64,000 nt of DNA from a virus: positions 32,001 through 96,000 of the IMG/VR virus record IMGVR_UViG_3300018080_000105. One strand, given 5' to 3'. The position numbers and the translations under genes were made by a program. This document shows, one piece after another, positions 1-41,091 of this stretch. Numbering within the stretch: position 1 is the stretch's first letter; every line of letters starts with the position of its first letter. Below the pieces are notes generated by a model. It saw only the letters and a program-made list of their open reading frames with translations. It made no database searches and was not told the origin of the DNA.

Positions 1-455
1 GACAAAGAATCCTGCAGACTCAGACTGGCATACTTGTGCCCGTCAAGCGAGTCGTTGTCGGTGCGAGCCGGGTGAGATGATCCAGGATCATCTTTGCCAC
101 CCTTGTAGTCGTCCTCTGTCCCAGGGTCTTCCCCGGTGGCCGACTGGTTCGTGCCGATGTTCAGCTGGACATCGTCCTGCTGGCCAGGCTTAGCATCGGA
201 AGCCTGATTGACTCCCGGAGCGCCCTGGTCTTTGTTGACATCGGCGGTGTGTTCGGATCCGCGAGAACCTTCCGACGCTTCCTGGCCGCGGTTGTCCACG
301 TCCTTGGTCGCGTGAGTGGTTGCTCCCTGGTATCCACCGGGATCATCCGGCGTTGGGGTTTCTGCTGCTTTCTCAGCAGCAGCTTTTTCCTGGCCGTCGA
401 TCGGCTGAACGAGTTTGTTCAGAGAATCAAACAGGCTTTGGGTCTGTGTACTCAT
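1..455 (-). CDS. Scaffold-like acidic protein, 3'-truncated by the window edge (MSTQTQSLFDSLNKLVQPIDGQEKAAAEKAAETP...GHKYASLSLQD...)
   Basis: Not in the ORF track; translated manually. ATG at 455 with AAAGGAG SD, open to position 1. Directly downstream of the head protease; low-complexity acidic sequence with KAA, KAA and KYA motifs. Confidence 0.55.
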   Translation of the reverse strand, partial: MSTQTQSLFDSLNKLVQPIDGQEKAAAEKAAETPTPDDPGGYQGATTHATKDVDNRGQEASEGSRGSEHTADVNKDQGAPGVNQASDAKPGQQDDVQLNIGTNQSATGEDPGTEDDYKGGKDDPGSSHPARTDNDSLDGHKYASLSLQDSL

Positions 456-499
456 GAGTCTGTCAACTCCTTTTGACGCTGGAGCCTCCTGGCAAAGTC

Positions 500-2008
500 T
501 TAGGCTGCGTAATTCTGCAGCAAGACCAGATCGGCTGTCAACGCTAAATCGGGTTTATGGGTAGGTTGTGCCCCGAGAAAACTCAGTTGGTACAGGGCAT
601 ATTCTTCGGCCAGCTTACTCACATCACTGTTATCGGAAGCAACCTTCTCGTTCCCACTACGAAGAACAGGAGCTTCTTCCAGGTACAGTGCTGCTCGCGT
701 CACTCGATCCTGCACGTGTGCCGGATGTAGTGAGAAGTGGCTGGCCAGCTTGGCTGCCCACGTCTCGAACCGGGGCGGTGCGACGGCAACTGACGGTGCG
801 TAGTGACTTTTCTTCACTCGCGCCGGCAGATCTCCCTTCTCCAACATCCGTGTAAAGATCCCCGGGAGTTCCCGGGAAACCAACGCTGACACGGTCGCCG
901 CTTTCTCGTGAGAGATATCGGTCGTGGCAGCGAGGAACGCGGACACTGGAAGGCAGATCTGCTGATCTGCCATTGCGCGCAGAGCGTACGCAAACTTATA
1001 GCGGAACTGTGGAGGCAGTTCCAAGTCAGCGTCCTGCACAGAGTCCCGAAACGCTAAGGCAGAAGTCGCCGACAGCGTATTCGGATCCTCGTGTATCTGG
1101 CTTTCTCGGGCGGCCAACAGGTAGGCCGTTTTGATCAGATGCTCGACTTCTTTGGGATAATCACCCTGCAGCATCATTTCGATTGGTTCCACAATGCCCA
1201 TCTGATGGGCCAGCTCGGCGCTCTTAATCACACGCCCATGAACGGCGGCGGATTTCTCCAGAGCGCCCATCACATAAGCGATGCGGTCAGCCGGCCGGTA
1301 GACGTTGCTGATATCGAAGAAGCTGGGTTGTGGGTTGTCAGCGTGCAGATGGTGGATACCGCCATCAATCTCGATCAGCGACCCAATGTTGTCGCGAAGC
1401 CCACCAGCTTTGCACATACCACCCTGGTAGGTCCCGGAACAATAATCAGCAGTAGTAGGAGCCACGTTCGCACAATACGAACAAACGTCGTGCGGAACGG
1501 AGCAGGCCATTGAGACAGCGATCTCTTTGTTCGCTGCCAGCTTTTCCATCTCACGATCAGCAATCAGCCCGCCGTTACGCCGGGCCGCGGCCTCGTTAGC
1601 GTTGAGAGCGACCAGCAGTTCGATCCGCTTCATGGGATCATGCCATGCAGATTTAACCACACGGCCGTAGCTCTTCTTGGGATCTTTGTTCTGATGGTTG
1701 CGATAGAAGCGAGCGAACTTCTCAAAGGTCGGGTGGTACTCGCGACAAACAGAAGCACGGAACCCATCACCGTTACGGTTCGGCCCGTAGAACTCCGTGG
1801 CGCCCATTGCCAACATGTGGACGAGCACCTCGTCGGACGCCACCTTCTCGCGGATACGATCAATGTCCCGGAGCAGGTCGTCAGAAGCGCGCTTCACGAA
1901 CGCATCACGGTCGCTGCCCGTTAGGCCGCGACCTGTGAGTTTGACTTCGCTTACCACGGGCTCGTCGTAATTGAGCGAGTCCGGAGTGACAACTTTGACG
2001 ATGCTCAT
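500..2008 (-). CDS. Prohead/maturation protease (assemblin/HK97-like serine protease) with Cys-rich insert and long helical C-terminal region
   Basis: NHQNKDP..GRVVKS (His), VSMACSV (Ser) and FFDISNVYRPAD match the caudoviral prohead protease pattern H...S...(E/D)xSxVxxPA. CSYC..C..C cluster follows the Ser. Confidence 0.7.
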   Translation of the reverse strand: MSIVKVVTPDSLNYDEPVVSEVKLTGRGLTGSDRDAFVKRASDDLLRDIDRIREKVASDEVLVHMLAMGATEFYGPNRNGDGFRASVCREYHPTFEKFARFYRNHQNKDPKKSYGRVVKSAWHDPMKRIELLVALNANEAAARRNGGLIADREMEKLAANKEIAVSMACSVPHDVCSYCANVAPTTADYCSGTYQGGMCKAGGLRDNIGSLIEIDGGIHHLHADNPQPSFFDISNVYRPADRIAYVMGALEKSAAVHGRVIKSAELAHQMGIVEPIEMMLQGDYPKEVEHLIKTAYLLAARESQIHEDPNTLSATSALAFRDSVQDADLELPPQFRYKFAYALRAMADQQICLPVSAFLAATTDISHEKAATVSALVSRELPGIFTRMLEKGDLPARVKKSHYAPSVAVAPPRFETWAAKLASHFSLHPAHVQDRVTRAALYLEEAPVLRSGNEKVASDNSDVSKLAEEYALYQLSFLGAQPTHKPDLALTADLVLLQNYAA

Positions 2009-2019
2009 AGTTTCCCTCG

Positions 2020-3030
2020 CTAGTTCACGCCACTGCTGAGAGCCGTACCAGCGTTCCGGTAGGCGTTCGTCAGGTCGCGGCCAAACATATAGTTGCCGAG
2101 CAGGCCGACGCCTGCGCCCATAAGTCCGCCGCCAATTTTCCCGCCTATGCCGCCAAGTCGCGGGGTGTATCTACCCACACCTGTACGAGGCGCCAAATGT
2201 CCTGGCATCGCAGACGTACCAGCTCGCAATCGTTCCGCAACAATAGAATTCGGGCGTACGCGTTGCCGCAATGCCTTCCGCTCTGCTTGTGATTGTGAAC
2301 TGTAGCGGTCAAGGTCGCGCTGTGCCCTGTTCGGCAGCGCCGCTCGACGCTTTTGCTGTTGATCCCGAATATACTCTTGCTGAGCAAGCATGGTTTTCTG
2401 GTCACGCAAATTTTGCACGTTGCGAGCTTCTGCCGGATCCGGTTTATTGCCGAACAACTCTTCAACATTGTACTTGCCAACTGCCTGCCGAACTTTACGC
2501 GTATCATGCACGCGGTCAGCTACGTGCCCAGCCGCTGCGCCCGCCGCACCACCTGCCGCGGGCATCCCCCAATCAGTTGCCATCGCCAAATTACTTTCAG
2601 CAGTCGGCGACAATCCGGCCTCGTCTTGATAAGTCTCAGGCGTTATCTTATCGCCAGTACCCGCAGCGTCGAATCGACGCTGCACCGATTCAGGAGTCTC
2701 GATCCCTCCGTTATTGTACTTACGAGGTTGCTCACGAACCCCGGGAGCCTGTCGCTGATCCCACCAGTTCTTGCCAGCAGCACCAGACGCGCCAACGCCC
2801 GCACCCAGCAGCGAACCCAGGATCGCATTACGGAGCCATCGCTTTTTCTTACGCTTGCTCAGCGCACTTGCCAAGAGCCCGGTGCCAAGGCCGACACCGC
2901 CACCAATCAACGCAGAGCGACCCACATCGACCGCCTGCTTCTCATGGCCCACACTAAGCACAGCCTGGATTGCCACGAGACGTGACGCGTCATCAAGCGT
3001 CAGTATATTGGGGTCAAATGATTGAGGCAT
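2020..3030 (-). CDS. Putative virion/ejection protein with Gly-zipper hydrophobic segments and K-x-A motif
   Basis: Start reassigned to ATG 3030 (MPQSFD, AAGGAAG SD). EKQA then ALIGGGVGLGTGLL, AILGSLLGAGVG and IGGGLMGAGVGLL. Confidence 0.6.
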   Translation of the reverse strand: MPQSFDPNILTLDDASRLVAIQAVLSVGHEKQAVDVGRSALIGGGVGLGTGLLASALSKRKKKRWLRNAILGSLLGAGVGASGAAGKNWWDQRQAPGVREQPRKYNNGGIETPESVQRRFDAAGTGDKITPETYQDEAGLSPTAESNLAMATDWGMPAAGGAAGAAAGHVADRVHDTRKVRQAVGKYNVEELFGNKPDPAEARNVQNLRDQKTMLAQQEYIRDQQQKRRAALPNRAQRDLDRYSSQSQAERKALRQRVRPNSIVAERLRAGTSAMPGHLAPRTGVGRYTPRLGGIGGKIGGGLMGAGVGLLGNYMFGRDLTNAYRNAGTALSSGVN

Positions 3031-4402
3031 GTTGACTTCCTTGTGAGAGTGCTGCCTGATCACGAAGTTTCTTGTCGGCGTCAAGGATCTGATCCTGCTC
3101 GAATGTGTCGAGAGCGCCCTGCTGGAGCTTCTTCCGCAGAAGACTCTGTACCAGCATCCGCTGCCCGGCAATGTTCGGCGACAACTGCACCAGATCGTTG
3201 TATGCGTCGGTCACTTCCGGGGCATCGTAGCCAGAAATAACCTCGTCGTTCAACATGAGGTCCTGCAGAGTGGCTTGCGAATTGATTGCCCGCATCTGCG
3301 CCTCGTGCTCAGGATCGTGCAAACTAGCCAATGCCCCGCTCACCCGTTCATCTTCCGACGGCCCGCCCAGCTTCCCGAGACCTTCCGCAAGGTTAGTCGC
3401 GGCAGAGGCTCCGATCAGCGTCGTAAAGGGGTCCATCGACTGCTTTTCCCGCTCGTCAGATGATGAACCCAAGATCGAAGGGCTGACGAGGGGTTCCACG
3501 AAAGGGGCCAGGTCGTGCTCCTGATGGGCAGCCGCAGCCTTATTGGCTTCTGCCAGCTCGCCAGCAGCGATTCGGACATCTTCCGCAGCTTTCAGGACAC
3601 GGTTGACGATCGTGAATGGCGCCTCAGTGGCGTCCAGGTCATCGACAGTTACCGGAAAGGCGTGGCGGCCGGGACTCAGCACAGAGTGACCCAAGTGGTG
3701 GTCTGACAGCTTGGTCAGCCCCGGGTTGACGCTGATCAGCTCGTCCATGACCCGCTTGCCTTTGTTGCCGTGCATCAGCACAACTGCTTCCTTCACAACC
3801 GGAATCGGGTGAGCACCCGGCCGGCGGAAGTAGTCAGTCAGATCGTTGAACGCACTACCCAGTTCATCGAACGCACTGGCATGCTTGCGGCGAGCATCGT
3901 CACAAGCCCACTGCAGCCGCCGCTGTTCGTTGAGTACCGGTCGGAATTCGTTCTTCTCAGATGGCAGGTCTTCCGCCTTCTTGATCAGCATGTCACGAAG
4001 TTGCGACCACTCAGGCAATGATGCCTTCTTCATCAAGCGATGCCGCCGTTGCAGCATAGCTCGCGGACTATAGTTGTACTCCGAGGAGACCACCGTATCG
4101 ATCACAGAGGCTGAGGCCTCTTTGGTCTGTGGCGGGTACAGCGTGTGCTTGACCACTTGCAGGTCTGCCAGCGGGAACTCCGCGCGCTTCTGCAACAAGT
4201 CTTCATTGCTTTTCCGCTGGTGAGTCGTCTGGCCGACGTTGTACGCGTGCACAACCAGGTCGAGTTCTCCCGGGCGCAACTGCATCTCGCGAGCAACCTT
4301 GACGATTGCTTTGTTCGGATCTTCTCCGGCAAGCACGGCATCGGTGGTATGCGAAATCGCATCCATCATGCGTCGCTCTGTTTCCGGTGCGATCTTTTTC
4401 AT
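3014..4402 (-). CDS. K-x-A-rich helical virion-associated protein, function unknown
   Basis: 462 aa ORF in the head module; about 10 of 26 Lys are in K-x-A (manual count). Confidence 0.65.
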   Translation of the reverse strand: MKKIAPETERRMMDAISHTTDAVLAGEDPNKAIVKVAREMQLRPGELDLVVHAYNVGQTTHQRKSNEDLLQKRAEFPLADLQVVKHTLYPPQTKEASASVIDTVVSSEYNYSPRAMLQRRHRLMKKASLPEWSQLRDMLIKKAEDLPSEKNEFRPVLNEQRRLQWACDDARRKHASAFDELGSAFNDLTDYFRRPGAHPIPVVKEAVVLMHGNKGKRVMDELISVNPGLTKLSDHHLGHSVLSPGRHAFPVTVDDLDATEAPFTIVNRVLKAAEDVRIAAGELAEANKAAAAHQEHDLAPFVEPLVSPSILGSSSDEREKQSMDPFTTLIGASAATNLAEGLGKLGGPSEDERVSGALASLHDPEHEAQMRAINSQATLQDLMLNDEVISGYDAPEVTDAYNDLVQLSPNIAGQRMLVQSLLRKKLQQGALDTFEQDQILDADKKLRDQAALSQGSQHASII

Positions 4403-4404
4403 GG

Positions 4405-5367
4405 TTACGCCTCCAGAATCTGGGTCGATTCAGTTTGTGGGAACTCCAACCGTCGTAATACCTCGGGCCGGATGATGTCCTTTCCAACGGACACACGCAT
4501 GGTTTCTTCGTACGTCAGTTCAGCTGCTGTAGTATTGAACTCGTGAGTCACGCTGAACAACTCTTCCTTCTTCCGTCCAATACTGAACGGCAACGTCGTC
4601 ATCATCGCATGGATGTGATCGAGTACCTGTTCCTGTGCTTTACCCGCACTGTCTGTGTTTCGTTCGACTTCAACAAACTTCGTGAACTGTTCCATCAACG
4701 CCAGTTGTGTACCCTGGTTGACGCTGACAGTTTTGGCTGCCAACGCTGCTTTCAGCTTCAGCGTACTGACCGCGTCGTCCAAAACACTGGCACCTACGGC
4801 ATCTGGTGTGCCACACCATACAGGATTTGCGAACTTACTCTCCAGAGCGTCTACGATGTAAGGCCCCAGAAAATATCCATACAGCTTCCAAAGCAGGTCG
4901 TGTTCTCGTTCTGACAAGCCCCGGTGAATCGCTGGCCCCATGACACAGTTCAGAATGTACGAGCGATGTTCCAGCTTCTCTTTGACGTTGAAAAACAAGG
5001 CTTCGTAAGCCGTGATCACCGCCGGGTCCATGTCGCAGCGGAACGCGATAGAGAAATCATCGGTCCGAGCCAGAAGGTGGGCTTCGATCAGGTGCTTCTG
5101 AACATTGGTCGCGGAACTCCAGGCAGTGTGCGCCCAGAAGATGTGAGGTCGTTTAGTAGCCAGGCGGGCCAGTGCGGCTTCGTCCTCAGACGCTCTCTGG
5201 TAGGCACGCAAAAACGATACGGCTTTATTGATCCACTTAAAGCCTTTGAGCCCGTCGCGCTTTCGAGAAGCACGCGGGCCGTCGCGATCGACAATCTCTA
5301 CCGCCCGTTGCCACATCCAGTCGGCGGGGCGGAAGGGATTGCTTGCCATAATGTGGAGAGCGGGCAT
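4405..5367 (-). CDS. Hypothetical phage protein (helical)
   Basis: 320 aa ORF abutting both neighbours; no recognised motif. Confidence 0.7.
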   Translation of the reverse strand: MPALHIMASNPFRPADWMWQRAVEIVDRDGPRASRKRDGLKGFKWINKAVSFLRAYQRASEDEAALARLATKRPHIFWAHTAWSSATNVQKHLIEAHLLARTDDFSIAFRCDMDPAVITAYEALFFNVKEKLEHRSYILNCVMGPAIHRGLSEREHDLLWKLYGYFLGPYIVDALESKFANPVWCGTPDAVGASVLDDAVSTLKLKAALAAKTVSVNQGTQLALMEQFTKFVEVERNTDSAGKAQEQVLDHIHAMMTTLPFSIGRKKEELFSVTHEFNTTAAELTYEETMRVSVGKDIIRPEVLRRLEFPQTESTQILEA

Positions 5368-5371
5368 GTGA

Positions 5372-5794
5372 TTATCCGTTCAATGCCGACGGTTCAATCA
5401 ACAGGCTGAGGCCGTAGGTTTCCGTCCCAGAACCTCCACTGTTGATACGCATCCACAGCCGCCGTACAGGGTTTGTCGGCGTGCCGTCTCTATTGATGTA
5501 AGGGTAGTCTACCGCCGCCCGGTACGCCCCGCTCGTAATGGACACTTGTCCATTCGTAATCGAGTGCGCTTCCGGGTCACCGCCTTCCGTGGCAGAATCG
5601 GCAGACGAGCCAGCTGTCGCCATCGCCGCTACTTCGGAATCATAGATCTCGAAGTTGCCGGCGTCGGTGCCAGAGAGCTGTTTCAAATTGATCTGTTTGA
5701 TCGTCCCACGATGCGGCACATCAAGTCGCACGATCTCTTCCTGTCCAGCCTCGACAGAAAACTGAACAGGGCCATAACCCCATTGGTTACTCAT
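5372..5794 (-). CDS. Hypothetical beta-rich protein (possible virion decoration)
   Basis: Start reassigned to ATG 5794 (MSNQWGY), overlapping the HNH stop; alternating hydrophobic strands. Confidence 0.6.
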   Translation of the reverse strand: MSNQWGYGPVQFSVEAGQEEIVRLDVPHRGTIKQINLKQLSGTDAGNFEIYDSEVAAMATAGSSADSATEGGDPEAHSITNGQVSITSGAYRAAVDYPYINRDGTPTNPVRRLWMRINSGGSGTETYGLSLLIEPSALNG

Positions 5795-6518
5795 GGTCGG
5801 TTCCCCAAAAGATGTTGAATTCGTCAGCGGCCTGCGCGATCTTGATAGCCATCTCAGGCGGGAGTTCAGAAAGGTCTTTGGCGCCCTTCTGCGAGTTGCA
5901 GACACGGCACAATGTAACAGCGTTGCCTGGTCGAAGGCCGTGCCCCTTGGACAACGGCTTTACGTGGTCAGTACACAGACTACGCTGACTGTTACAGTTC
6001 ACGCAGGCCGGCTGCGACTCCCGGAGAGCCTGCTCCATTTCAAGAGTCCACGCGGCATCCAACTGCTGTTTCCTTTCCATCCTCTCGCGGACTTTCATAC
6101 GAGCATACGCAGGCGTCCTTGACTGTCCGTGCGTGCTATTAACCGCACTAGCCCGGCTCCGCTGATAGCACCCGCAGGACTGTGTGTGCCCGTTGCGGAG
6201 CTTGGCAGCCATCACGGCAATCTCACGACCACAGTCACAAAGACATGGCCAGAAATTATTTCCAGGAGCAGGCCGGCGAAGAATCATCAGCCGACCGTAA
6301 CGAGCACCTACTACGAGACGCGATGGCAAGTTGTCCAAGTGCTCTCTCAGAACACAACCACAAGACGTGATCTTGCCCTGCTGGAGGTCCCCAGACCTGA
6401 TCGACTTCTCATTACCGCAGGTACAAACGCATAACCAATACACGCCCTTCCGCGAGGTGTCTCGCTGAAGGACGGTCAGCCGTCCATATCTTCGTCCTGT
6501 GCGGTCAATGAGTTTCAT
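5787..6518 (-). CDS. Free-standing HNH homing endonuclease with two N-terminal CxCG...SCGC repeats
   Basis: GRRYGRLTV..WLCVCTCG..SCGC twice; C-terminal CVNC..TDHVKPLSKG..NAVTLCRVCNSQKG HNH motif. Confidence 0.85.
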   Translation of the reverse strand: MKLIDRTGRRYGRLTVLQRDTSRKGVYWLCVCTCGNEKSIRSGDLQQGKITSCGCVLREHLDNLPSRLVVGARYGRLMILRRPAPGNNFWPCLCDCGREIAVMAAKLRNGHTQSCGCYQRSRASAVNSTHGQSRTPAYARMKVRERMERKQQLDAAWTLEMEQALRESQPACVNCNSQRSLCTDHVKPLSKGHGLRPGNAVTLCRVCNSQKGAKDLSELPPEMAIKIAQAADEFNIFWGTDHE

Positions 6519-8974
6519 CAGTTTGCAACATCCCGAAGACTAAGGTCAGAACTGTCTTCTTCTGGGTACGGTTCAATTGTCTTTTGCTTTAAGAAGAGCA
6601 CGATATCGCCAGTCGACTCGAACGCGTTCCGCAATGAGTCTTCCAGTTCGGGCATATCCTGCTTGCCGTACCTATCGGCAAACTGCTCCTGGTGCCAGTA
6701 GAACTGGAACAGGATACGCCCTAATCGATCAACCGACCGGATGATATCAGGAATGTACCGATCAATCATCGTATCGTCTCGCACAGCTTTCAGCATGGAG
6801 CCGATCATCGCTGTGTCGAAGACTTCCTTCTGACCGGAAGCAGCTGCGTCTGCTACAGCTGCGTGATCCATCGGTCCCGGTGTGGCGCCAGGGCGTACAT
6901 CATAAACCGAAGGATCGGTGTTAGCTGCTGACAACGCCTCGACAGGAACCTCTTCTTCCTGCATGGCGATCGTGTTGCCCTGGAAGCCCATCGGGTTGTA
7001 GCCGCCCTGCATCGCTTCCGGGAATGATGGAGCCATCGGGGCTCCCTCGGTCAGGAAGGGATTAGCGTACTTCACGCGACAAACCATGCCGTTACCAGCA
7101 TGGCTTTTGTGCTTCGCAGTCTTCAGCAGTTCCTGAGAGGCCGGCACAGAAAGCCCGTGGTCATAAACCAGGTGGACCTGTGCATCCCGCGGAGTTAGCC
7201 GGTGACCATTGACGATGTAGCGGGTGCCCTCGTCTACGATTCGCAGCTTTGCGGTTTTCTTCATGATGTTCGCAGTGGCGTCGAACAGGTTGCCAGGCTG
7301 GATCGGCGGATCCTTGCTCGTGGTGTCGTCAGCACAGCAAGGCTCGATATGAGCCTTGTTCTTCCGACGCTCATCCCAGTTCGTCATCTGGACTTTGACA
7401 ACCTTGCAACCCTTCGGCACAAACAAGTCGCCTCGACTGGACCGCATATCGGTTCCGTCTTTGGCATCCAGATGAATCCGTTGCCCGTCAGACCATTTGC
7501 TATACCGATCATAGTTGGATGACGTATCGTAGTCTGTCCAACGACGCATACCCACTTCACGACTACGCGGGTGGTCAGTCTCGAAGTCGACTTTGTAAGA
7601 GTCATCGCCGATCGAATCTTCCACGCGGAACGTACAGGTCGCGTTGCGTCGCGGTCCAACAAGCATGTAGCGATCACCAACAGTCAGAGAGCTGGCGTCA
7701 GACTGACTATCGAGCCAGTCTTGCCAATTCTCTTCGCCGCCCATTTCTTCTTCCTGGCCGGCGGTCCAGATGTCGTGGCGGTCGAAGTTGCCCCAGCTCT
7801 TGTCCCCTTCAAGCCGCACAACCAGGCAGGTGCTTTCACGCCCATCTGGGCCGACTGGGTTGATGACTACCAGACACTTATCGAACTCGCCCGGCTTCGT
7901 CAGCACCTGATAGATGCCAGTTTCACCAGGATTGACGAGCTTTTGTTCGACCTGCAGGTTTACCGCCACAGAGATCTCATCGCCGGAGCGGTGATCTTTG
8001 ATCAGCATGCCGTCTCGCAGCAGCTTTTCCTGGTCCTCTTCGGCGAGGTCCTCGGGCGGCCCGTCCACCATACTCTGTTCGCTGGTGATGATACGGATCT
8101 TCTGACGTGCGTCCGGGCCGTCGTCATCGTCGGCCGCAGTCTTCTCGCCCAGGATGGAACCGGTGATGATTTGGTTCTTATTTACCGAAGCGTACGGGTC
8201 ATCCATCACGGAGCTGATGTTGCTCCGGTTGCGTGCCTCTGACACGGCATCGGTCAGCACATCCATCCCGTGCCAGTTAGCGAAGGCAGCTGCGATCTTG
8301 GGCTTCCGCTGCATCATTTCCACAACCGCCTGCAACGCTGGCAGGCTGGCTTGCTTCATGAAGTCACTCAGATCGAGCTTCGTTTGACAATGATCCGCAA
8401 ATTCGGAGATGCTGTCTTGCAGAGGCCGTGTCGCTAAGTGCCCAAACACTGGCATGAACGCAGCGACAGCAGACGCGTACTTGTGCGGCGACTCGCGGAG
8501 CTTCGAGAGTTCTGGCTGGCTCACGCCGATAGCCGACAGGTTACGGTCAATACCTGCGCCAATGATGTTCGGCTTACGATTGATGACGTAGTTGAGCCAG
8601 TTCTCTTTGAGCGGGACAAACATGTCCTGATTCTTCAGGTACAACAGTTCGTGGCCCTTCAGCTCACCTTGAAGAAAGAACACTGGAGCAAACAGCTGAG
8701 AGCTGCCTACCTTAAAGGCCATCACACCGACAGCCTGGGTGTTCTCTTCGTTGCGGTCGAGCAGCTGGAAGCCCAGCTCGTGATCGAGCAGGGTCGGAGC
8801 TTTATCCCGCATGTAAGCGTGAGCCAAATTGGAGAAGGCCTGCTCAAAGGGAGCGTCGGCACCATCTCCTCCCAATTCGGCTACTTTGATCGTCTGTTCC
8901 GGCGCGTGTGCGTAGTCACGGACACGGTTCATCCAGTAGTCGATTTCATGAGTCTGAGGCATGGGGCGCTCCAT
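6518..8974 (-). CDS. Large K-x-A-containing virion-module protein, function unknown
   Basis: 818 aa ORF with KVA, KYA, KQA, KIA, KTA (x3) and KYA motifs; coupled to the HNH by a TGATG overlap. Confidence 0.7.
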   Translation of the reverse strand: MERPMPQTHEIDYWMNRVRDYAHAPEQTIKVAELGGDGADAPFEQAFSNLAHAYMRDKAPTLLDHELGFQLLDRNEENTQAVGVMAFKVGSSQLFAPVFFLQGELKGHELLYLKNQDMFVPLKENWLNYVINRKPNIIGAGIDRNLSAIGVSQPELSKLRESPHKYASAVAAFMPVFGHLATRPLQDSISEFADHCQTKLDLSDFMKQASLPALQAVVEMMQRKPKIAAAFANWHGMDVLTDAVSEARNRSNISSVMDDPYASVNKNQIITGSILGEKTAADDDDGPDARQKIRIITSEQSMVDGPPEDLAEEDQEKLLRDGMLIKDHRSGDEISVAVNLQVEQKLVNPGETGIYQVLTKPGEFDKCLVVINPVGPDGRESTCLVVRLEGDKSWGNFDRHDIWTAGQEEEMGGEENWQDWLDSQSDASSLTVGDRYMLVGPRRNATCTFRVEDSIGDDSYKVDFETDHPRSREVGMRRWTDYDTSSNYDRYSKWSDGQRIHLDAKDGTDMRSSRGDLFVPKGCKVVKVQMTNWDERRKNKAHIEPCCADDTTSKDPPIQPGNLFDATANIMKKTAKLRIVDEGTRYIVNGHRLTPRDAQVHLVYDHGLSVPASQELLKTAKHKSHAGNGMVCRVKYANPFLTEGAPMAPSFPEAMQGGYNPMGFQGNTIAMQEEEVPVEALSAANTDPSVYDVRPGATPGPMDHAAVADAAASGQKEVFDTAMIGSMLKAVRDDTMIDRYIPDIIRSVDRLGRILFQFYWHQEQFADRYGKQDMPELEDSLRNAFESTGDIVLFLKQKTIEPYPEEDSSDLSLRDVAN
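8173..8186. promoter_or_regulatory. Repeated 14-mer GGTTCTTATTTACC, copy 1 (intragenic)
   Basis: Identical to 50430-50443 and to the reverse complement of 33389-33402. Confidence 0.45.
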
Positions 8975-9043: not shown

Positions 9044-10939
9044 CTACGGGGTCGTTTTGTTAGTGTCAAGATCCTTCCAGCCCTGGGTTGCTCCATGCTC
9101 CCCAAAGCCAGCTCCGTGGGCCAGGGCCGGCACATAGCTGGTCCCGCCCTCGTCCGATACAGCACCTCGTCGGGCGCCTTCCAAAAGACTGTTTTTCTGG
9201 TAACTACCCAACATCCTGGTCATCCAGTCCGGGTCATGTGCCGCATTCGACATTCCCCGAATCATTTCCGGCTGAAACGGAGGAGGCTCGGTATGTGCGT
9301 AAATCGACCGAACTCCGTGTTTCTGCAGATGTTTTACCATCGAAGGCTGGATCTTGGTACCCACGGAATAATGTAGGACGGGTCGTTCGAGATATTTTCC
9401 TGCTGCCTGGTTCGGTGTAATGACCGCGTGGCCCTCACGCGGTTTCCACTGTCGCTCCAGTAATTGGTAAGGAACCACATCATCCTGGACCCAGTCACCC
9501 ATCTCTTCGGTGAGCCTGACATGGTTGATCAGGCCCCGAGAAAGCAGCTCGATATTACGTCGGTGACCACGTGTTCCCATACCGTCAAGCGTGTCGCGGA
9601 ATGCCTTCACAAAGTACCGTCGACCTTCTCCGACGCCTTTATGCTTTACGACTTCGGCCGGGTTGGGGATTCCTTCGGAGATAACATCTCCGGCTTCGAC
9701 CGTGTCACCCTTTTTGACTTTGAGCTCGTAGCCGTGACCAACATAGTGGTCTTCGTTCCCAATGTGGACGTAGTGTCCGCCCTGCGGAGCTTCTCGCACA
9801 GAGTGCACAGTCCCGTCCAACTGAGCATGTGCCGCACCCGCGGCGAATTTCTTAGGGACTTGCACCAGCTGGTTGATGAACTGGAAACCTGAGATGGCAC
9901 CCGCCCCTGCTCCCGCCACGCCCCCAGAATGCTTTGAGGAAATTTGGGCCTGCGTGATCGGTTCCGCGAGTGCCTGGGCCGCGGCAATACCAACATAGTC
10001 ACCGATTGGCGACAATCCTCCACGTTCGCGATATCCCAAATCACGGGCATAAACTCCGCCGTCCTGCGGCCCGCCCACGGTCGGACTGCGAACAAGTATT
10101 TCATCAATGCCATCAGCTTCCAGCTCTTTCAAAATCTTCGGTGTCAGGACCGTATTGCGTTTGTACCCGCCGATCGGGTGCGCCAGCAGTGAACCAGCTG
10201 TATCTGAGTCGTTCGTATTTACCGGCAAACCGCGTGGCGTAGATTCGTCGTAGGGATCGTCATCATCGTCTGACGTAACCAGCAGGCGATGAGTTGCCTG
10301 CACGAGCTGCTTTGCCAGGAATCCGGCATCCTGTGTCGCACTCTTCAAGTCCTGAATCCCTTTCCTCGCACCGAACGCCCCGGCGAAATACTCATAGGGC
10401 TTCAGTCCCATGGAATAACTGCGAAGCACAGGAATCGGCAATGCGTTGCCGCGGTGGTCGGTGTACAGGAGGTCAGCTCCGCGAAGAGAATTCAGATTTA
10501 CGCTGTTACCCCGCGAACCAGACTGTACCTGCATTGCAAGCGGGTTGCCTTCGTCCTTGGATTCCTGCAGGACATCTTTGTGCAGCTGTCCCTGATATTT
10601 CTGCACAGCGAGCAAGACTGCGGTGTCCTTTTGTTCGTCAGACATGTTGGACGAATAGATCTTGTCCAGTTCCTTCTGCATCTTCATCCGCATCTGCCGC
10701 CCAGCCAGTGACTGTCGCAGAGATTTCAATCCAAATGAATAGCCACCCTCGGAGAACGAAGCATCCCGCCCAATGTCAGACAGGCGTTTGGCGACTTCGC
10801 GATATTTATCCGGGTGTTTATCGGCTACTTCCTGGAGCAAAGCACGGATGCCTTTCTTGTCCAGTACCCGGTCGTGGTCGACCAAGTCTTCTGGCAAGAC
10901 ACTGTTGATCCAGAGTTGTCCAAGAGTCGTTTCCAGCAT
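9044..10939 (-). CDS. rpoC: Phage RNA polymerase beta' subunit, C-terminal half (bridge helix, trigger loop, jaw)
   Basis: TTLGQLWIN (TTxGR), SGSRG (SGARG), GARKGIQDLKSATQDAGFLAKQLV (bridge helix), VGIAAAQALAEPITQAQISSKHSGG (trigger loop with His). No Cys. Confidence 0.93.
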   Translation of the reverse strand: MLETTLGQLWINSVLPEDLVDHDRVLDKKGIRALLQEVADKHPDKYREVAKRLSDIGRDASFSEGGYSFGLKSLRQSLAGRQMRMKMQKELDKIYSSNMSDEQKDTAVLLAVQKYQGQLHKDVLQESKDEGNPLAMQVQSGSRGNSVNLNSLRGADLLYTDHRGNALPIPVLRSYSMGLKPYEYFAGAFGARKGIQDLKSATQDAGFLAKQLVQATHRLLVTSDDDDDPYDESTPRGLPVNTNDSDTAGSLLAHPIGGYKRNTVLTPKILKELEADGIDEILVRSPTVGGPQDGGVYARDLGYRERGGLSPIGDYVGIAAAQALAEPITQAQISSKHSGGVAGAGAGAISGFQFINQLVQVPKKFAAGAAHAQLDGTVHSVREAPQGGHYVHIGNEDHYVGHGYELKVKKGDTVEAGDVISEGIPNPAEVVKHKGVGEGRRYFVKAFRDTLDGMGTRGHRRNIELLSRGLINHVRLTEEMGDWVQDDVVPYQLLERQWKPREGHAVITPNQAAGKYLERPVLHYSVGTKIQPSMVKHLQKHGVRSIYAHTEPPPFQPEMIRGMSNAAHDPDWMTRMLGSYQKNSLLEGARRGAVSDEGGTSYVPALAHGAGFGEHGATQGWKDLDTNKTTP

Positions 10940-10944
10940 TCGTA

Positions 10945-11196
10945 TCAGCCAGATTTGATCTGAGGTTGCCCCGGGGCATTAACGTCGATGACTGCGACCG
11001 TCTTATCGATACCAAGGTTACGCAGTACCTCGTTGAACTGTCGCTGCGTAGATTCCTGTGCAGTCTCTGCGATGATCAACTCATCTCCAAGTTCTGCGGC
11101 GACGGCGATCGGATTGTCGAACTTATCAAGAACAACGACCCGAGTGACTTCTTTGGTTGTGAAGTCGCCCAGGCCATTGTGAAACATGATCTTCAT
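10945..11196 (-). CDS. Hypothetical 83 aa protein between the RNAP genes
   Basis: Coupled ORF (TGATG overlap with the upstream gene at 11196). Confidence 0.65.
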   Translation of the reverse strand: MKIMFHNGLGDFTTKEVTRVVVLDKFDNPIAVAAELGDELIIAETAQESTQRQFNEVLRNLGIDKTVAVIDVNAPGQPQIKSG

Positions 11197-11879
11197 CAGA
11201 CCTGCGTCCTCTGCCGCATAATTGCCGCCACAGCCGCAGCCCCGGTCTCGGGGTCGTAGTTGTTGAGAACATCACGCACAGTCAACTGTGCTGCCTTCTC
11301 GCCTCCGCCCCCGGCCAAGCCGGCCTGCATCGGGTTAATATCTGGAATCGGTCCACCGCCGTCATCCGCTGGAGCCATTGCAGCTCCCGGATCCTGCGGC
11401 CCGCCAGGCACTGCCGCTTCCGCGACAGGTGTCGGCGAGCCTGGAGGTGTGATCAGGGCACCCGGATCGAGCTGAATGCCCTGTGCGTTCATAATAGCCG
11501 TCAATTGTTGCTGCAGATTGTACAACCTGAAGTCCAACATCTGCATCATTTGCTCGGGCTTCATTTTTGGCGGGGCTGCTCCAGCACCGCCGGCGGCAGC
11601 TGCCGCCGGGTCGGCTGGAGGAGCGGCACCAGCTGCCATCGCTGGGTCCATCGCACCACCGACCATAGCTGGATCAACAGGAGGCGCCGCTCCGGGCATT
11701 GCTCCAGCCATTGCCGGGTCCATCGGGGGCATGCCGCCTGCAGCCGCCATAGCCGGGTCCATCGGGGCGCCGGCGGGCGCTGCAGGAACGACTGCAATCT
11801 TTTCCATTGAAGGACCGCCTTGATCCTTCCACACACGATGCTGCGCGAGTTCAAGAAGAGCAGGGTTGTAACCGGTCAT
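11196..11879 (-). CDS. Low-complexity P/A/G/M-rich protein with DPAM repeats and K-x-A motifs
   Basis: Five (M/V/A)DPA(M/A) units, EKIA and EKAA motifs, coupled overlaps at both ends. Confidence 0.7.
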   Translation of the reverse strand: MTGYNPALLELAQHRVWKDQGGPSMEKIAVVPAAPAGAPMDPAMAAAGGMPPMDPAMAGAMPGAAPPVDPAMVGGAMDPAMAAGAAPPADPAAAAAGGAGAAPPKMKPEQMMQMLDFRLYNLQQQLTAIMNAQGIQLDPGALITPPGSPTPVAEAAVPGGPQDPGAAMAPADDGGGPIPDINPMQAGLAGGGGEKAAQLTVRDVLNNYDPETGAAAVAAIMRQRTQV

Positions 11880-12487
11880 CAGTTGATCTCCGAATCAGAT
11901 TGGCACGGGCATACGCCGTCATTCATCTTCTTGCCGAAATTGCAATTTGCGCACAACGTCTGCAGAGTATCTGGGAAACCATTCTGAATAGCCCAACGAT
12001 ACAAGTTCGTGGGACCGATTTCCTTCCGGTGAAGATACCCGTCATCGTTCACATGGTCAATTTGTAAGAAATACTCGCGAGTTTCGCCACAGCAGACGCA
12101 TTTCCGTCCGTAGTGATCAAAGACTTGTGACTTCTGCCGCTGATACCGCTCAACCTTCTTGGCCTTGCAGCCCAAGCAGTAAACTCCCGTCTCTACCGGA
12201 GTAGTACAGGTCGGACACAGGCCGGCTTCTCTCCAGGCTGCTCTCCGTTCGTTACTGTTCCGCTGCTGGCTCTTGGCACAGACGGCGCATCTTACACGCC
12301 CAGCTCGGGGTGAGCGAACCCCGCAGTTGACACATTTCCCCGAATTCTTCCGCCGTTCTCGCCGGTCCCTGGATTTCGCCTTGGCGATCTCCGCACAGGC
12401 AGGGCACAGAGCCTTGTCGGTCGGAGTCTCGCACTCAGTGCACTGACCCGCAGCACGACGCCGCCTGTATTGCATGAGGGAAGCCAT
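11879..12487 (-). CDS. HNH-type endonuclease with three N-terminal CxxC..CxxC zinc-finger repeats
   Basis: YGRKCVCCGE..FLQIDHVNDDG..LQTLCANCNFGK His-Me finger; three GxCxxC..CxxC repeats. Confidence 0.8.
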   Translation of the reverse strand: MASLMQYRRRRAAGQCTECETPTDKALCPACAEIAKAKSRDRRERRKNSGKCVNCGVRSPRAGRVRCAVCAKSQQRNSNERRAAWREAGLCPTCTTPVETGVYCLGCKAKKVERYQRQKSQVFDHYGRKCVCCGETREYFLQIDHVNDDGYLHRKEIGPTNLYRWAIQNGFPDTLQTLCANCNFGKKMNDGVCPCQSDSEIN

Positions 12488-29243: not shown

Positions 29244-30371
29244 TTATCGCACTCCCTGCAGGAAACGGTCCAATGGATGATGCACCAGTGGCTTCCGTTG
29301 ACCTGACAGGTATGAAGACAGCTGACGCATGGAACGATCTGGATCAGCAGCATTTGCCAGCCGATCCTGTGCGGCAGCCTCGCTGATTGCTCGGTCACCG
29401 CGATGCTTGACCGCCCCCACATGGTTTACCAGATTATCGAGCACTCCGCGAGTGTGGTCGTACTGAAACGGAGTCTGATTGATTGCATTCATGTAGACGC
29501 TGCCGGCCTGCTTGGGTTCGCCGTACGGTTTTCCTTTGTACTGGTACTTCAACGGCCCCAGCACATTAGTTGTACGAACATAGTCAGCCGTCAGCTCCTC
29601 GCCAGAGACAATGTCTCGCAGAGCCCGCATCTGGACATACCCGTCACCTTTGACAATTTCAGTGTTCGGACTGTCCGAGTGATTGGTGTAACGAGCGTCA
29701 TCTGATTGTTCATAGACGTGCTTGCCGTCTTCGTTATCCGGCAAAACTGTCATCAGGCGATCAACGATGATGTCGCCATCGCTGAACTTCTGCGCAGCGA
29801 ACAAACCTTTACCGTGAATAGCCGACTCCCCCACACGGACGGACCTCGCGGCCGCCTTTTGCATGTGGATCATCGACGGCTGTCGTCGTTTCTTCTTACG
29901 GATAGCAAACGTCACATGGAACGGATACTGCGGCGGGCCGAGGCCCAGGTTACGACGAAGCTCCATCAGCCCCGGCGACTTGGCTTCCAGCGCCCAGCAC
30001 TTGGAAACACCGTCCCACGTATGCGGTGTGATCTTTCGGACCACGCCCAGGTTGAACCCGAACATTTGCCCGCGTTCTTTGATCCCGTCCGGGCCGCCGA
30101 TCGATTCCAACTCTTCAGGACGCGCCACAGAGATGTGAGCGTTGTACTGCCCGCTGGAGTCCTGTTTCGGTTGCTCGACCCCGGGTTCGTCAAGAGCCTG
30201 AAACGCACCATTCCCGATTGCATTGGGAACGTCAAGCAAAAGCCATCCAGAGTTGGAAAGGTACAGCTTCCCTTTCATCGCATATGACAGCGGGGGACGT
30301 GCGTCCGCCTGTTTATCTCGCTGCGACAATAGAACAGCCGCTTCCCCGATATCGTATAACGATGCAGACAT
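29244..30371 (-). CDS. K-x-A polyprotein: 2H phosphoesterase domain + SET lysine methyltransferase domain + C-terminal helical domain
   Basis: AHISV and FHVTF (2H HxS/HxT pair); ESAIHGKGLFA..RYTNHSDSPN..ALRDIVSGEELTADY (SET). Confidence 0.85.
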   Translation of the reverse strand: MSASLYDIGEAAVLLSQRDKQADARPPLSYAMKGKLYLSNSGWLLLDVPNAIGNGAFQALDEPGVEQPKQDSSGQYNAHISVARPEELESIGGPDGIKERGQMFGFNLGVVRKITPHTWDGVSKCWALEAKSPGLMELRRNLGLGPPQYPFHVTFAIRKKKRRQPSMIHMQKAAARSVRVGESAIHGKGLFAAQKFSDGDIIVDRLMTVLPDNEDGKHVYEQSDDARYTNHSDSPNTEIVKGDGYVQMRALRDIVSGEELTADYVRTTNVLGPLKYQYKGKPYGEPKQAGSVYMNAINQTPFQYDHTRGVLDNLVNHVGAVKHRGDRAISEAAAQDRLANAADPDRSMRQLSSYLSGQRKPLVHHPLDRFLQGVR

Positions 30372-31379: not shown

Positions 31380-33365
31380 TCAAGTACGCCCTAGAAAGGC
31401 GTTCTGCGCTTCAGGTGACATCGCTCGCAATTTTTCCATATTGGCTCGCTGATCGTCCGACAGGAAGGTGCTCCAGACTGACTCTGGCAAAGTCTCCACA
31501 GCCCAGTTTTTCGCACCATCCTTCATCCTATCAAACCAACCTTGTTCGCCAGCATCTGATGTCGCAGGCTGTGGAGCCTGTTCGCCGCTTCCCTGGCTTC
31601 CGAAGAGACCAGAGATCGCGTTCTGTGCTCCTTCACCGAACATCCCCGCACCGGCAGCCGCGGCTCCTGCCCCGCCCAGTCCCAGGGCCGCCATCAGCCA
31701 AGACTCAATCCCGCCATCAGACAACGCACTAATCAACCCGATACCGCCAAGCGTCACGCCGAGCCCAAGTAACCACTTCATTGGCGTGTCCATGTTGTTC
31801 CACATCTCGGGGATCTGTTCCATGCTAAAACCGTTCTTGGCCAGTTCAGCTGTACCAGTTTCCTGCATTCCCGGAGTCATCTCGCCAGTCTCTAACGCTT
31901 TAGCGACTTCCTCGTTGCCCGACCACATGTCTTTGATCTTGGTACCCAAGTCAGTAGCCATCGCCGTCGCTTGCTGCGGCATGGACGCGACGAAATCAGC
32001 CATCTGAGTCATCACCCCTGTCTCATTCAACACTTCATTCGATACAGCGTCTGAAACCGCGCCTGCCGTTCCCGGTAGACCCCCGGCCGCGGCGGCAGGA
32101 TCGGCCGTGTTCGGAGCCCCGGCAGGCGCATTCTGTGCGTTCGCCATGTAACGGTCTTTCCGCATGGCATCTGCTGTCTGCGGGTACCCAACTCCGCCAT
32201 ACACTTCGTCTACAGCTTGTGCCCCGGCCGCCAAAGGAGCTGCTCCGCCTGCTCCACTGGCCGCAACGCCCATAGCCCCGTTTCCAAGTAACTGCCCGCC
32301 TCTTGCAGCATTAGCCGCCAAACCACCGCCAGCCGCCAGCCGCGATGCGCCGAGCACTTTACCAGCCCCCGCAGCCAACCCGCCACCAGTTGCCAGCGTC
32401 AACGCCGGCTCCGCGGCTGTATGTGTCCAGCCCAGCCCTGAATGCACTGCTCGCGACACTGGAGAGCCGCCCATTGAATTCGGTTGGTTGGCCATTTGAT
32501 GGTGATGTGCTGCGGCTGTGTTGTTAGCACTCTGGGAACGCCCTTGCAACTGATGCTGCGTGTCGCCAAAGAAACCACGACCAGCATCCGTGCCCATTGG
32601 GCGAGCGTAACTATCAGGACGCGACTCAACACTGTGCCCAAAGTTCGCACCGGTGACCATGTTCGGAAATGTCATCAAGTCTCGCGCCATCATCCGAGAA
32701 TAATCACCACCGGCCTGGCCCCTCATCGCGTCAACGGCCACAGCAGGCAACGCCCCGAGCCCGGCCAACGCTGAGCGACCTGCTCCGGATACGTAGTCCA
32801 TCGCGCCATGCTGTGGCTCATTGGCCTTGTAGTCGACAAACTCGCTGTCGCCCTGTGCGTTATTCTGTCGCGAGCCAACCAGGTGCTCTCGAACAGGTCC
32901 ACTGCCAAACATCTCCCGCATGATATTACCCGGCATCTGATACCACTTCTCGGAAGCAGGAGCTACCTGGCTGCGAAGATCCCGCCCCTGCTGAGCAACT
33001 TGCCGCGTCATCATTTGACGGCTCTGCGGCCCGCTCCCGGGGCGCGCCGGCTTCGGGCGAGCTGCGGGTGCGCTGGTCGGTGCAGTCGTCGGAGCAGCCG
33101 ACGGAGCAGGAGGCATCTTGCTCTGCGGCATATTCTTAGCCGGAACAAACGCGCACTTCTCGAATTCGGCCCGAATCGCTGGATGTCGCTGCACGGCATC
33201 GATGCAGGCTTCCAGAATCTCCAAATCCGAGAGCCCCGCCTGGCCGCACTTCTCCAGGAAGCCTGCCACGAGACGGGACTTTGAGGAATCAATCGAAGCA
33301 ACGGCGTCGCGGCAACGGCGGTTCGTCGCCAGCTTCTGCAACTGCACAAGGCGTGGAGCAGACAC
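31380..33365 (-). CDS. Large Gly/Ala-rich putative virion/ejection protein
   Basis: 661 aa; KLA and KCA motifs, multiple Gly-zipper helices (LLGLGVTLGGIGLISAL, ALGLGGAGAAAAG). Confidence 0.65.
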   Translation of the reverse strand: MSAPRLVQLQKLATNRRCRDAVASIDSSKSRLVAGFLEKCGQAGLSDLEILEACIDAVQRHPAIRAEFEKCAFVPAKNMPQSKMPPAPSAAPTTAPTSAPAARPKPARPGSGPQSRQMMTRQVAQQGRDLRSQVAPASEKWYQMPGNIMREMFGSGPVREHLVGSRQNNAQGDSEFVDYKANEPQHGAMDYVSGAGRSALAGLGALPAVAVDAMRGQAGGDYSRMMARDLMTFPNMVTGANFGHSVESRPDSYARPMGTDAGRGFFGDTQHQLQGRSQSANNTAAAHHHQMANQPNSMGGSPVSRAVHSGLGWTHTAAEPALTLATGGGLAAGAGKVLGASRLAAGGGLAANAARGGQLLGNGAMGVAASGAGGAAPLAAGAQAVDEVYGGVGYPQTADAMRKDRYMANAQNAPAGAPNTADPAAAAGGLPGTAGAVSDAVSNEVLNETGVMTQMADFVASMPQQATAMATDLGTKIKDMWSGNEEVAKALETGEMTPGMQETGTAELAKNGFSMEQIPEMWNNMDTPMKWLLGLGVTLGGIGLISALSDGGIESWLMAALGLGGAGAAAAGAGMFGEGAQNAISGLFGSQGSGEQAPQPATSDAGEQGWFDRMKDGAKNWAVETLPESVWSTFLSDDQRANMEKLRAMSPEAQNAFLGRT

Positions 33366-33388
33366 GGCACTCTCCTGGTTGAGGGAAC

Positions 33389-33402
33389 GGTAAATAAGAA
33401 CC
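33389..33402. promoter_or_regulatory. Repeated 14-mer, copy 2 (intergenic, inverted), within a 6 bp inverted repeat AACGGT/ACCGTT
   Basis: GGTAAATAAGAACC on the plus strand, upstream of the SD of 31380-33365. Confidence 0.5.
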
Positions 33403-33403
33403 G

Positions 33404-33616: not shown

Positions 33617-33644
33617 CTCGATCTCCGATACAATCCGTTGTTTA

Positions 33645-40181: not shown

Positions 40182-40233
40182 TTAGCTTCTCCTGCTGTGA
40201 GGCGTCCGCAGTTTAGCAGCCCATCAACAGAGT

Positions 40234-40818
40234 TCAACTGGCGACATAAGTGAACAGAAAGTGCTCTCGCAGATTCCTTTGCAGTGTCTGGCAATGCACA
40301 CGCTGAATCCGATCAATATCGGAAAACTTCTCGTGCAACTGTTCTTCGTTCTCAAACACCTGTAGGTGAGCATGGTATGGCATGTTGACCGGGCAAGTCG
40401 CGACCACAACGCCTAAACACAGCCTCTTCATCTCTTCCCAGATCTTTTCCGGGTATTCGAGATGCTCCAACAGCTCACAGCACCAGATCAGTTCATAGCC
40501 AGGATTCACCGAGGGTAACGCGTCATACAGATCCGCGGCCCAAAACGCAGGACGGTCACCCTCTTCAGGATGACCGTACTTTTCGCGTGCTTTGAAAATT
40601 CGCTGAGCGGAGTAATCAATCCCACAGTATTCCATACCGCGACGAGTGGCGTACTCAGACGCTCTGCCATCCCCGCAACCTACGTCCAGCATTGCGCCAG
40701 ACTCGGGTGCGTCAGCCAGTGCCATCAATCGTTCCAGATCGGGACCGGCCGGGCTGTAGTAATTCAATTTGCCGTCGTAATACGACTGCAGCTCTGCTTC
40801 TTTCGGGCGTGGGATCAT
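40234..40818 (-). CDS. Class I SAM-dependent methyltransferase
   Basis: MLDVGCGDG, GIDYS, CELLEHL. Confidence 0.88.
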   Translation of the reverse strand: MIPRPKEAELQSYYDGKLNYYSPAGPDLERLMALADAPESGAMLDVGCGDGRASEYATRRGMEYCGIDYSAQRIFKAREKYGHPEEGDRPAFWAADLYDALPSVNPGYELIWCCELLEHLEYPEKIWEEMKRLCLGVVVATCPVNMPYHAHLQVFENEEQLHEKFSDIDRIQRVHCQTLQRNLREHFLFTYVAS

Positions 40819-40836
40819 GCTTCCTGCTCCACGGAG

Positions 40837-41091
40837 TTATGCTTCCTGCTCTTCTTCCTTCTTCGGCAGCATGCTTTTTACAGCTTTGTGGCCAGAATTA
40901 CCACCGAGCAGGTGACCAAGGACCGCCTGTTTCGTCTGCGGTGTGTGCCGAACATGCGGCTGCGGCATCAACCGGCCGGGTTTTCCGGACAGAGTATAAG
41001 ACCGAGCTGTCTTTACTGGCGTCGTCGAAGCCACCGACATCGCTTTGGCGGCCTGTCGTCCCAGATCTGACGCAAACTTAGCAGTATCCAT
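40837..41091 (-). CDS. Small basic K-x-A peptide
   Basis: Start ATG 41091; KFA, KTA and KQA in 84 aa. Confidence 0.5.
   Translation of the reverse strand: MDTAKFASDLGRQAAKAMSVASTTPVKTARSYTLSGKPGRLMPQPHVRHTPQTKQAVLGHLLGGNSGHKAVKSMLPKKEEEQEA

Follow-up and report, generated by a model that had tools for sequence, protein, structure and literature searches.

Herpesvirus assemblin, of the UL26/UL80 type, cuts at [V/L/I]-x-A followed by Ser at its release and maturation sites. The head-protease code of bacteriophage T4 is [L/I]-x-E, and its substrates are the scaffold protein gp22, gp67, gp68, the internal proteins and gp23 (PMC9958956). In phiKZ and SPN3US, gp175 and gp245 read [S/A/G]-x-E and A-x-E; the protease removes N-terminal propeptides that carry several copies of the motif and also cleaves itself (PMC5694885, PMC10052503). 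Here we describe a 64,000-nucleotide stretch (the window) of a 184-kb virus record, G000:32001-96000 in the record's numbering, in which nearly all genes lie on the minus strand and a group of head proteins is punctuated by the three-residue word Lys-x-Ala (K-x-A). We consider it likely that the phage's own head-maturation serine protease, a gp21/assemblin-fold enzyme encoded at 500-2008, recognizes its substrates by K-x-A. The scissile bond is most likely just after Ala, which makes Lys the P3 and Ala the P1 residue and leaves P2 free; the residues flanking the sites suggest that P5 favours Leu/Phe, P4 Glu/Val/Ile/Thr and P1' Ala/Ser. Computed here were the motif statistics, how the sites are conserved and placed, the fold of the protease, and the lack in relatives of the other candidate readers. 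The searchable literature, outside which most subscription journals lie, yielded no K-x-A or after-Ala phage maturation code.

Lys-x-Ala in the head-gene cluster

The head proteins considered below are the following. Coordinates are those of the window unless prefixed G000, numbered residues are those of the protein, and an arrow marks the predicted cut.

500-2008, minus strand: putative head maturation protease, 502 aa, with a gp21-fold N-domain, a linker and a helical C-domain; 13 K-x-A.
3014-4402, minus strand: scaffold-like core protein, 462 aa; 10 K-x-A in the first 290 residues.
3-455, minus strand: acidic Gly/Ala-rich head-core protein, first 151 of 479 aa; the gene continues past the window start to G000:31016.
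2020-3030, minus strand: Gly-rich hydrophobic protein, 336 aa; a single K-x-A, HEKQA↓V, at residues 29-33.
6518-8974, minus strand: conserved head-cluster protein, 818 aa; sites K30, K165, K207, K226, K278, K573, K618 and K635.
11196-11879, minus strand: 227-aa protein; leader site MEKIA↓V (residues 25-29), plus another site 30 residues short of the C-terminus.
G000:28795-29724, just outside the window: capsid protein, matching a PHROG 'major head protein' and the annotated Arash capsid protein.

Thirteen of the 26 lysines of 500-2008 begin a K-x-A word, compared with 3.4 expected (P ≤ 0.0002 in composition-preserving shuffles, 5,000 per open reading frame (ORF); P = 7e-6 in the binomial test). 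The same holds for 10 of 26 lysines in 3014-4402 (2.9 expected; shuffle P ≤ 0.0002, binomial P = 3e-4), against 2 of 37 in the C-terminal chain of RNA polymerase (RNAP) beta' at 9044-10939. These counts reproduce exactly those of the preliminary description, made from the sequence alone, and the enrichment that it claimed for the first two proteins persists after correction for composition. The acidic protein holds 10 K-x-A against 3.2 expected (P = 4e-4), with K24, K29 and K141 inside the window, and 6518-8974 holds 8 against 3.6 (shuffle P = 0.02). The three most enriched of the genome's 215 ORFs are near neighbours in one head-gene cluster, G000:31016-36402, and rank five is a 167-aa ORF just downstream of it. 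In seven head-cluster proteins Ala stands at +2 after 38% of the lysines, compared with 10% in the other minus-strand ORFs. The word also occurs early in the protein: it lies within the first 45 residues in 9 of 14 head-cluster ORFs of this genome and in 25 of 138 ORFs elsewhere (Fisher P = 5e-4).

The preliminary description had listed the motif in many more ORFs. By count alone, most of these stand at chance level in this genome: the shuffles gave P = 0.07 for 26457-28121 and likewise 0.07 for 40837-41091, and no significant count for 2020-3030 (1 K-x-A, 2.0 expected), 11196-11879, 16904-17851, 18710-19120, 29244-30371 or 31380-33365. In eight count-weak ORFs of that list the motif is still positionally conserved in relatives. 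"Many proteins enriched" is an overstatement, because only about seven gene families are; what the other listed ORFs hold is one to three conserved sites. RNAP itself is encoded by one 1,475-aa ORF at 12487-16914 (minus strand), which joins beta (Rpb2 domains 2, 3 and 6) to the N-terminal part of beta' (Rpb1 domains 1 and 2), and by the separate 631-aa ORF for the C-terminal part of beta' at 9044-10939 (minus strand). Neither is enriched in K-x-A.

Ortholog sets were drawn from 80 related loci, and the seven enriched gene families, with 28-80 relatives each, were pooled; the pooled ratios come from phylogenetically related sequences. In this test the enriched families (2.0-3.2-fold) were the protease, 3014-4402, the acidic protein, 6518-8974, 11196-11879, and the 167-aa and 126-aa proteins, whose genes lie just outside the window. 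The tail sheath, RNAP beta', 4405-5367 and other families showed no enrichment (0.4-1.2). The tail-sheath family (L002:5468-8395, that is, G000:19468-22395) has 36 K-x-A where 88 are expected across 37 relatives; this depletion may only reflect relatedness, since the window genome's own copy is at expectation (2 vs 2.2).

The K-x-A word is directional and specific. In a scan of the pooled head families for 1,600 residue pairs at gaps of 0 to 3, none exceeded expectation as strongly as K-x-A (2.66-fold). Control words in the same pool stayed flat: the reversed A-x-K (0.85), the shifted K-A (1.06) and K-xx-A (1.28), and the chemically similar R-x-A (0.86), K-x-S (0.99) and K-x-G (0.76). Across 2,896 distinct contexts the word is embedded in a wider signature, with Leu/Phe at P5, Glu (25%, 3.5-fold) or Val/Ile/Thr at P4, a free P2 at which Gln is mildly favoured, Ala/Ser at P1' and Asp/Ala at P2'; in short, phi-[E/V/I/T]-K-x-A and then A/S. 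The P5-P2' signature is missing around the K-x-A words of non-head proteins. As a control of the method, T4 head proteins were tested for their known code: [L/I]-x-E came out 2.8-fold enriched in the scaffold gp22 (16 vs 5.8 expected) and 2.7-fold in the protease gp21, and it marked the known propeptide boundary of gp23, while tail and neck proteins were not significantly enriched.

Enrichment recurs far from the window's genome. The family of 500-2008 comprises 3,283 clusters at 50% identity. Ninety-eight normal-length representatives of such clusters carry 13.3 K-x-A (range 7-19) where 3.6 are expected, and 97 of them are individually enriched to a significant degree; in the same 98 sequences neither the T4 code [L/I]-x-E (1.07) nor the phiKZ code [S/A/G]-x-E (1.04) is enriched. 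Conservation is higher for motif residues than for others (Lys 0.75 vs 0.49; Ala 0.85 vs 0.52), and the middle residue is only average. Matches in the phage database were limited to Salmonella phage Arash and three Vibrio phages. In the head clusters of Arash and of Vibrio phage D69, K-x-A is the top word of the unbiased scan (42 vs 18 expected and 48 vs 20 expected, respectively). The Arash capsid protein has V-K-E-A↓G ending at residue 29 and its protease homolog T-K-Q-A↓A, and the D69 capsid site is T-K-E-A↓G. The pattern that the preliminary description saw in one genome is found in relatives down to 29-35% identity, these two cultured phages among them. Gene order is kept as well: in the relatives examined, and in Arash and D69, it runs 818-aa, scaffold-like, Gly-rich, protease, acidic, small core and capsid protein.

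The scaffold-like protein combines a constant load of sites with changing positions. Its 79 homologs, down to 28% identity, hold 9-16 sites scattered over 109 alignment columns; of the roughly 12 sites in a protein, on average only 4.3 fall in a column that the window's protein also uses. Because the number of sites is kept and their positions are not, this family is the strongest argument against shared ancestry as the source of the word. Cutting at every K-x-A would leave pieces of ~16-37 aa. The protein has no Pfam, PHROG or phage-database match, and its gene position and motif load suggest a scaffold role.

In other head proteins the word ends an N-terminal leader. The capsid orthologs read PGM[E/Q]-K-x-A↓[I/V]DAVNDF in 74 of 75 cases, with x = Q/K/T/R/N and the site at residue ~25; the rest of the protein, its mature part, has 6 K-x-A across orthologs where 67 are expected. 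A site within the first 45 residues occurs in all 62 orthologs of the acidic protein (2.04-fold enriched overall), in all 28 of 11196-11879 (2.08-fold), and in 96% of the 74 orthologs of 6518-8974 (2.44-fold). The first part of 2020-3030 reads as a 33-residue leader: of 73 relatives, 68 have an N-terminal K-x-A in the syntenic gene, which lies upstream of the protease, and beyond residue 45 the word is slightly rarer there than expected (0.76). Predicted leaders are uniformly 26-33 residues long in the capsid, 194-aa, 336-aa, 126-aa, 818-aa, 227-aa and acidic proteins.

In 6518-8974, K30 and K165 are invariant. The AlphaFold model (predicted local distance difference test (pLDDT) score 64.8) shows low-pLDDT segments at residues 23-37, 134-169, 253-290 and 639-700 between folded blocks, and four of the eight sites lie in or at the edge of low-confidence linkers. 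Neither Foldseek nor a wide VIA-align search found a portal or any convincing match (best Z 5.4). We do not call the protein a portal because there is no fold match, which for a long model of middling confidence is not evidence against a portal either. Just downstream of this 818-aa gene, within the head cluster, lies an HNH endonuclease gene (5787-6518, minus strand); none of the 80 related loci has an ortholog of it, which makes a mobile, homing-type insertion probable.

The putative protease at 500-2008

The AlphaFold model of 500-2008 (pLDDT 80.6) divides the protein into an N-domain (residues ~17-240), a disordered linker (236-272) and a helical C-domain (273-502). Model residues 17-239 aligned with T4 gp21 (5jbl) in VIA-align at Z 8.9, with a root-mean-square deviation of 3.5 Å over 142 of 166 residues. 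The next rows reached Z 4.9 at most, and several were herpesvirus assemblins (Z 3-4.9). Gp21 chains were also the top three Foldseek matches, if weak ones (E about 0.05). The assemblin-like protease of the preliminary description is thus borne out by the model as a gp21/assemblin fold. Searched by sequence, 500-2008 matched no Pfam family at E ≤ 0.01 and only an unannotated PHROG, phrog_2774. It is the only protease-like gene seen to travel with the motif, being present in Arash, in D69 and in all 80 loci.

The protease family keeps H105, S166 and D224 without exception and H219 and H222 almost without. Judged by sequence conservation, these residues offer a candidate triad, His105-Ser166-(His222/Asp224), in the order of the gp21-type His-Ser-Asp triad (PMC5694885). 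Inserts of 350-390 residues lengthen about 40 of 141 cluster representatives to 600-1,300 aa (for example, P0222, P0225, P0227, P0231, P0239 and P0263); the inserts look intein-like by their boundaries (C... HN/C, with the slash at the junction) and by matches to Pfam PF14528 and PF14890. They occupy four conserved positions, which follow FG (~75), His105 (directly), S166-M-A (SMA/C) and D174-V; the placement beside H105 and S166 is typical of active-site regions. Between the candidate Ser and the HxxHAD block lies an invariant four-Cys cluster (C176, C179, C190 and C199; residues 176-199), an insert that looks zinc-ribbon-like.

The sites of the protease fall into distinct places. K39 and K55 precede the core, and K252 and K262 lie in the disordered linker. 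K455-V-A↓S occupies a loop 47 residues from the C-terminus, and 92% of the family keeps it. The remaining sites are inside folded elements; by analogy with T4 they could serve self-destruction, or they could be merely structural.

Putative cargo proteins and module junctions

Four further proteins carry few copies of the word, which in the first two stand at module junctions.

29244-30371, minus strand: putative cargo polyprotein, 375 aa; leader, K20-Q-A, 2H phosphoesterase, K172-A-A, SET, K287-Q-A, helical tail.
26457-28121, minus strand: putative modular cargo protein, 554 aa; leader, K56-S-A, HAD at ~64-166, K281-K-A, Gly-rich C-domain at 288-551.
16904-17851, minus strand: Gly-rich protein, 315 aa; four K-x-A (2.7 expected), two aligning with sites in distant homologs.
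18710-19120, minus strand: 136-aa protein; conserved N-terminal segment, then K33-L-A and K43-E-A.

The 375-aa protein contains Pfam 2H-SAK and SET domains. Its homologs were recovered by related-contig and protein searches, and none by a pattern scan of viral contigs. Fifteen of the 19 homologs have K-x-A in the column just before the 2H domain, behind unrelated leaders and with x varying, and 12 of 19 have it again after the 2H domain, wherever a C-terminal extension exists. Both SET-bearing proteins carry K-x-A after SET. Two homologs that have no leader begin within 1-2 residues of the predicted new N-terminus. In 26457-28121, Pfam and PHROG matches identify a HAD-type phosphatase domain, and in relatives the HAD part and the C-domain occur in different proteins; K-x-A precedes the HAD DxDGT motif by 9-12 residues in all three phages compared, which have differing N-terminal fusions.

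The two smaller proteins show the same fidelity of position. The site AA[KNA]GDDLG of 16904-17851 has aligned counterparts, G[KQA]SDDLD and A[KSA]GDHTF, in two homologs at 26% identity, and in the 18710-19120 family the word comes right after the conserved N-terminal segment in all five members, with a varying middle residue. Aligned sites are kept at 26-32% identity in 3 of 3 members of the former family and 5 of 5 of the latter. Where the preliminary description placed the word at apparent domain boundaries, the mapped sites do fall in disordered linkers and module junctions; the boundary strings it quoted are present in the sequence, except that 'EKQA↓FDL' is in fact DKQA↓FDL.

Behind their K-x-A leaders, 26457-28121, 2020-3030, 16904-17851 and 18710-19120 (all minus strand) have Gly-rich hydrophobic stretches of the GAGVGGLG kind. 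Their composition suggests membrane-active or self-associating segments.

Reading of the word and comparison with known systems

Several points weigh against cleavage of K-x-A by the 500-2008 protein. A look for protein-level evidence of cleavage found none for any member of the group; the Arash virion proteomics paper gives an annotation table and no peptide-level data (PMC10585845). A profile of 44 protease sequences matches no PDB chain at E ≤ 10 and there is no Pfam match, so that sequence methods give no link to known protease families, and the catalytic residues are assigned by conservation and order. The highly conserved K97-F-A, K119 and K156-L-A sit within the folded catalytic core, and because of this location their conservation may be structural and not substrate-related. 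Two of the ORFs listed in the preliminary description, 31380-33365 and 40837-41091 (searched as 40837-41208), gave no homologs in five relatives. Finally, the members of an ortholog pool share phylogeny, so that the pooled ratios make the independent evidence look stronger than it is.

The alternative that survives best, although we think it improbable, is that K-x-A is a docking or targeting word for recruitment into the procapsid, bound by the scaffold, the protease C-domain or the shell, and not a cut site. Such a role would fit a word that is concentrated in proteins expected inside the procapsid and that ends short N-terminal leaders, like the capsid-targeting sequences of T4 (PMC9958956). 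However, docking gives no reason for 10-16 copies with positional turnover in scaffold-like proteins, and it leaves unexplained the copies within the protease fold, those between cargo modules and the depletion from the mature capsid protein, whereas the K-x-A footprint matches the proven cleavage code of T4. The two roles are not exclusive, because T4 targeting peptides end at the cleavage motif.

We give still less credence to the idea that a different protease reads the word, either the trypsin-like protein of 22619-24391 or a host enzyme that cuts after Ala. The former has a Pfam Trypsin_2 match (E = 2e-12), which is a chymotrypsin fold, and a P1 preference for Ala is seen in some enzymes of this fold, for example alpha-lytic protease. 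However, searches whose sole positive control was that other queries matched the same records found no counterpart of 22619-24391 in the phage collection, Arash and D69 included, or in five related contigs, of which four are at least 93% complete; the motif is present in all of these. Absent from these motif-bearing relatives, the trypsin-like protein is disfavoured as the motif enzyme. A host enzyme is unlikely because the same motif occurs in phages of Salmonella, Vibrio and unknown environmental hosts; host proteins were not examined. The ORF at 22619-24391 (minus strand) encodes a 590-aa protein with a trypsin-like peptidase domain, and the lack of matches in the phage collection and the five contigs makes it look lineage-specific.

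A by-product of composition, of the secondary structure of Ala-rich helical proteins or of shared ancestry is a very improbable origin for the word. The head-cluster proteins are indeed richer in Ala than the other minus-strand ORFs (13.0% vs 9.4%) and largely helical, and many sites of the protease family are simply inherited. However, the shuffles and binomial tests already correct for composition, and reversed, shifted and chemically similar words are not enriched. The count is held while positions turn over, K and A are fixed while x varies, and the word is kept beside unrelated leaders and fusion partners. These controls largely refute the explanation.

Hardly credible at all is the option raised in the preliminary description, that K-x-A marks lysines for modification by the phage's SET methyltransferase. 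In its favour, 29244-30371 does contain a SET domain and the motif centres on Lys, but Pfam SET, detected in the window's genome as positive control, is absent from the complete Arash and D69 records and from two relatives 93-100% complete, and the relatives' homologs of 29244-30371 lack the SET part yet these relatives carry the K-x-A pattern, so that with the enzyme missing from four motif-bearing relatives and found only in this genome we reject SET as the clade-wide reader. Since both are absent from relatives that carry the motif, neither the SET enzyme nor the trypsin-like protein is likely to read it.

This leaves cleavage by the 500-2008 protease as the reading we favour, and from it we infer the cut itself, its exact bond, and the packaging and ejection of cargo. 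The order of events can be modelled on T4, SPN3US and herpesvirus. A procapsid would assemble from capsid protein, a scaffold-like core, the protease zymogen and cargo with 26-33-residue N-terminal leaders, the core being made of 3014-4402 and the 479-aa acidic, 167-aa and 126-aa proteins. Activation would free the catalytic domain at linker sites K252 and K262, with the ends trimmed at K39/K55 and K455. The protease would then chop the core proteins into ~15-50-residue pieces able to leave the shell, shorten the capsid protein by 27 residues, strip other head proteins of their leaders, and split multi-domain cargo into 2H, SET and tail, and into leader, HAD and C-domain. Last, it would destroy itself at sites within its own fold.

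More tentatively, and at a little less than even confidence, K-x-A may be the boundary of a portable "package and release" cassette, such that an enzyme domain lying behind a short leader or enclosed by two K-x-A marks would enter the procapsid, be freed by the head protease and reach the host together with the DNA. If so, the effectors that this clade injects, among them 2H phosphoesterase, SET methyltransferase and HAD phosphatase, could be shuffled module by module, and the injected arsenal of thousands of uncultured phages could be read from sequence alone. The clade consists of ~200-kb phages, mostly uncultured, with 3,283 protease clusters at 50% identity and two cultured relatives, Arash and D69. 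Should cleavage be confirmed, one could predict from sequence, in thousands of metagenomic genomes, where mature capsid and core proteins begin and end, which proteins are degraded, and which enzyme modules are released inside the head and are hence candidates for injection. For biochemistry the word is a ready substrate definition.

Compared with herpesvirus assemblin, the system shares Ala at P1, Ser/Ala at P1', a protease fused to a C-terminal scaffold-like domain and a related fold (Z 3-4.9). K252 and K262 in the linker are candidate release sites, and K455-V-A↓S near the C-terminus is maturation-like. It differs from assemblin in having Lys and not a hydrophobic residue at P3, in a much better fold match to gp21 and in belonging to a bacterial virus. 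With phiKZ and SPN3US it has in common a large phage, a virion-associated multisubunit RNAP and many packaged proteins, but the clade is different, and here the motif also stands between the enzyme modules of fused cargo.

The closest likeness is to T4. The 500-2008 protein has the fold of gp21 (Z 8.9) and the P3-x-P1 spacing of its code, and the distribution of the word follows that of T4, with the densest motif in scaffold and protease, a capsid protein that starts with a propeptide and packaged proteins that start with short leaders (PMC9958956). In contrast to the 212-aa gp21, the enzyme here has 502 aa, a four-Cys insert and a helical C-domain of ~230 residues, and it has no detectable sequence similarity to gp21; in the code, Ala takes the place of Glu at P1 and Lys that of Leu/Ile at P3. 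Lys-x-Ala looks like a third short head-protease code, beside the T4 and phiKZ-like codes, both of which cut after Glu.

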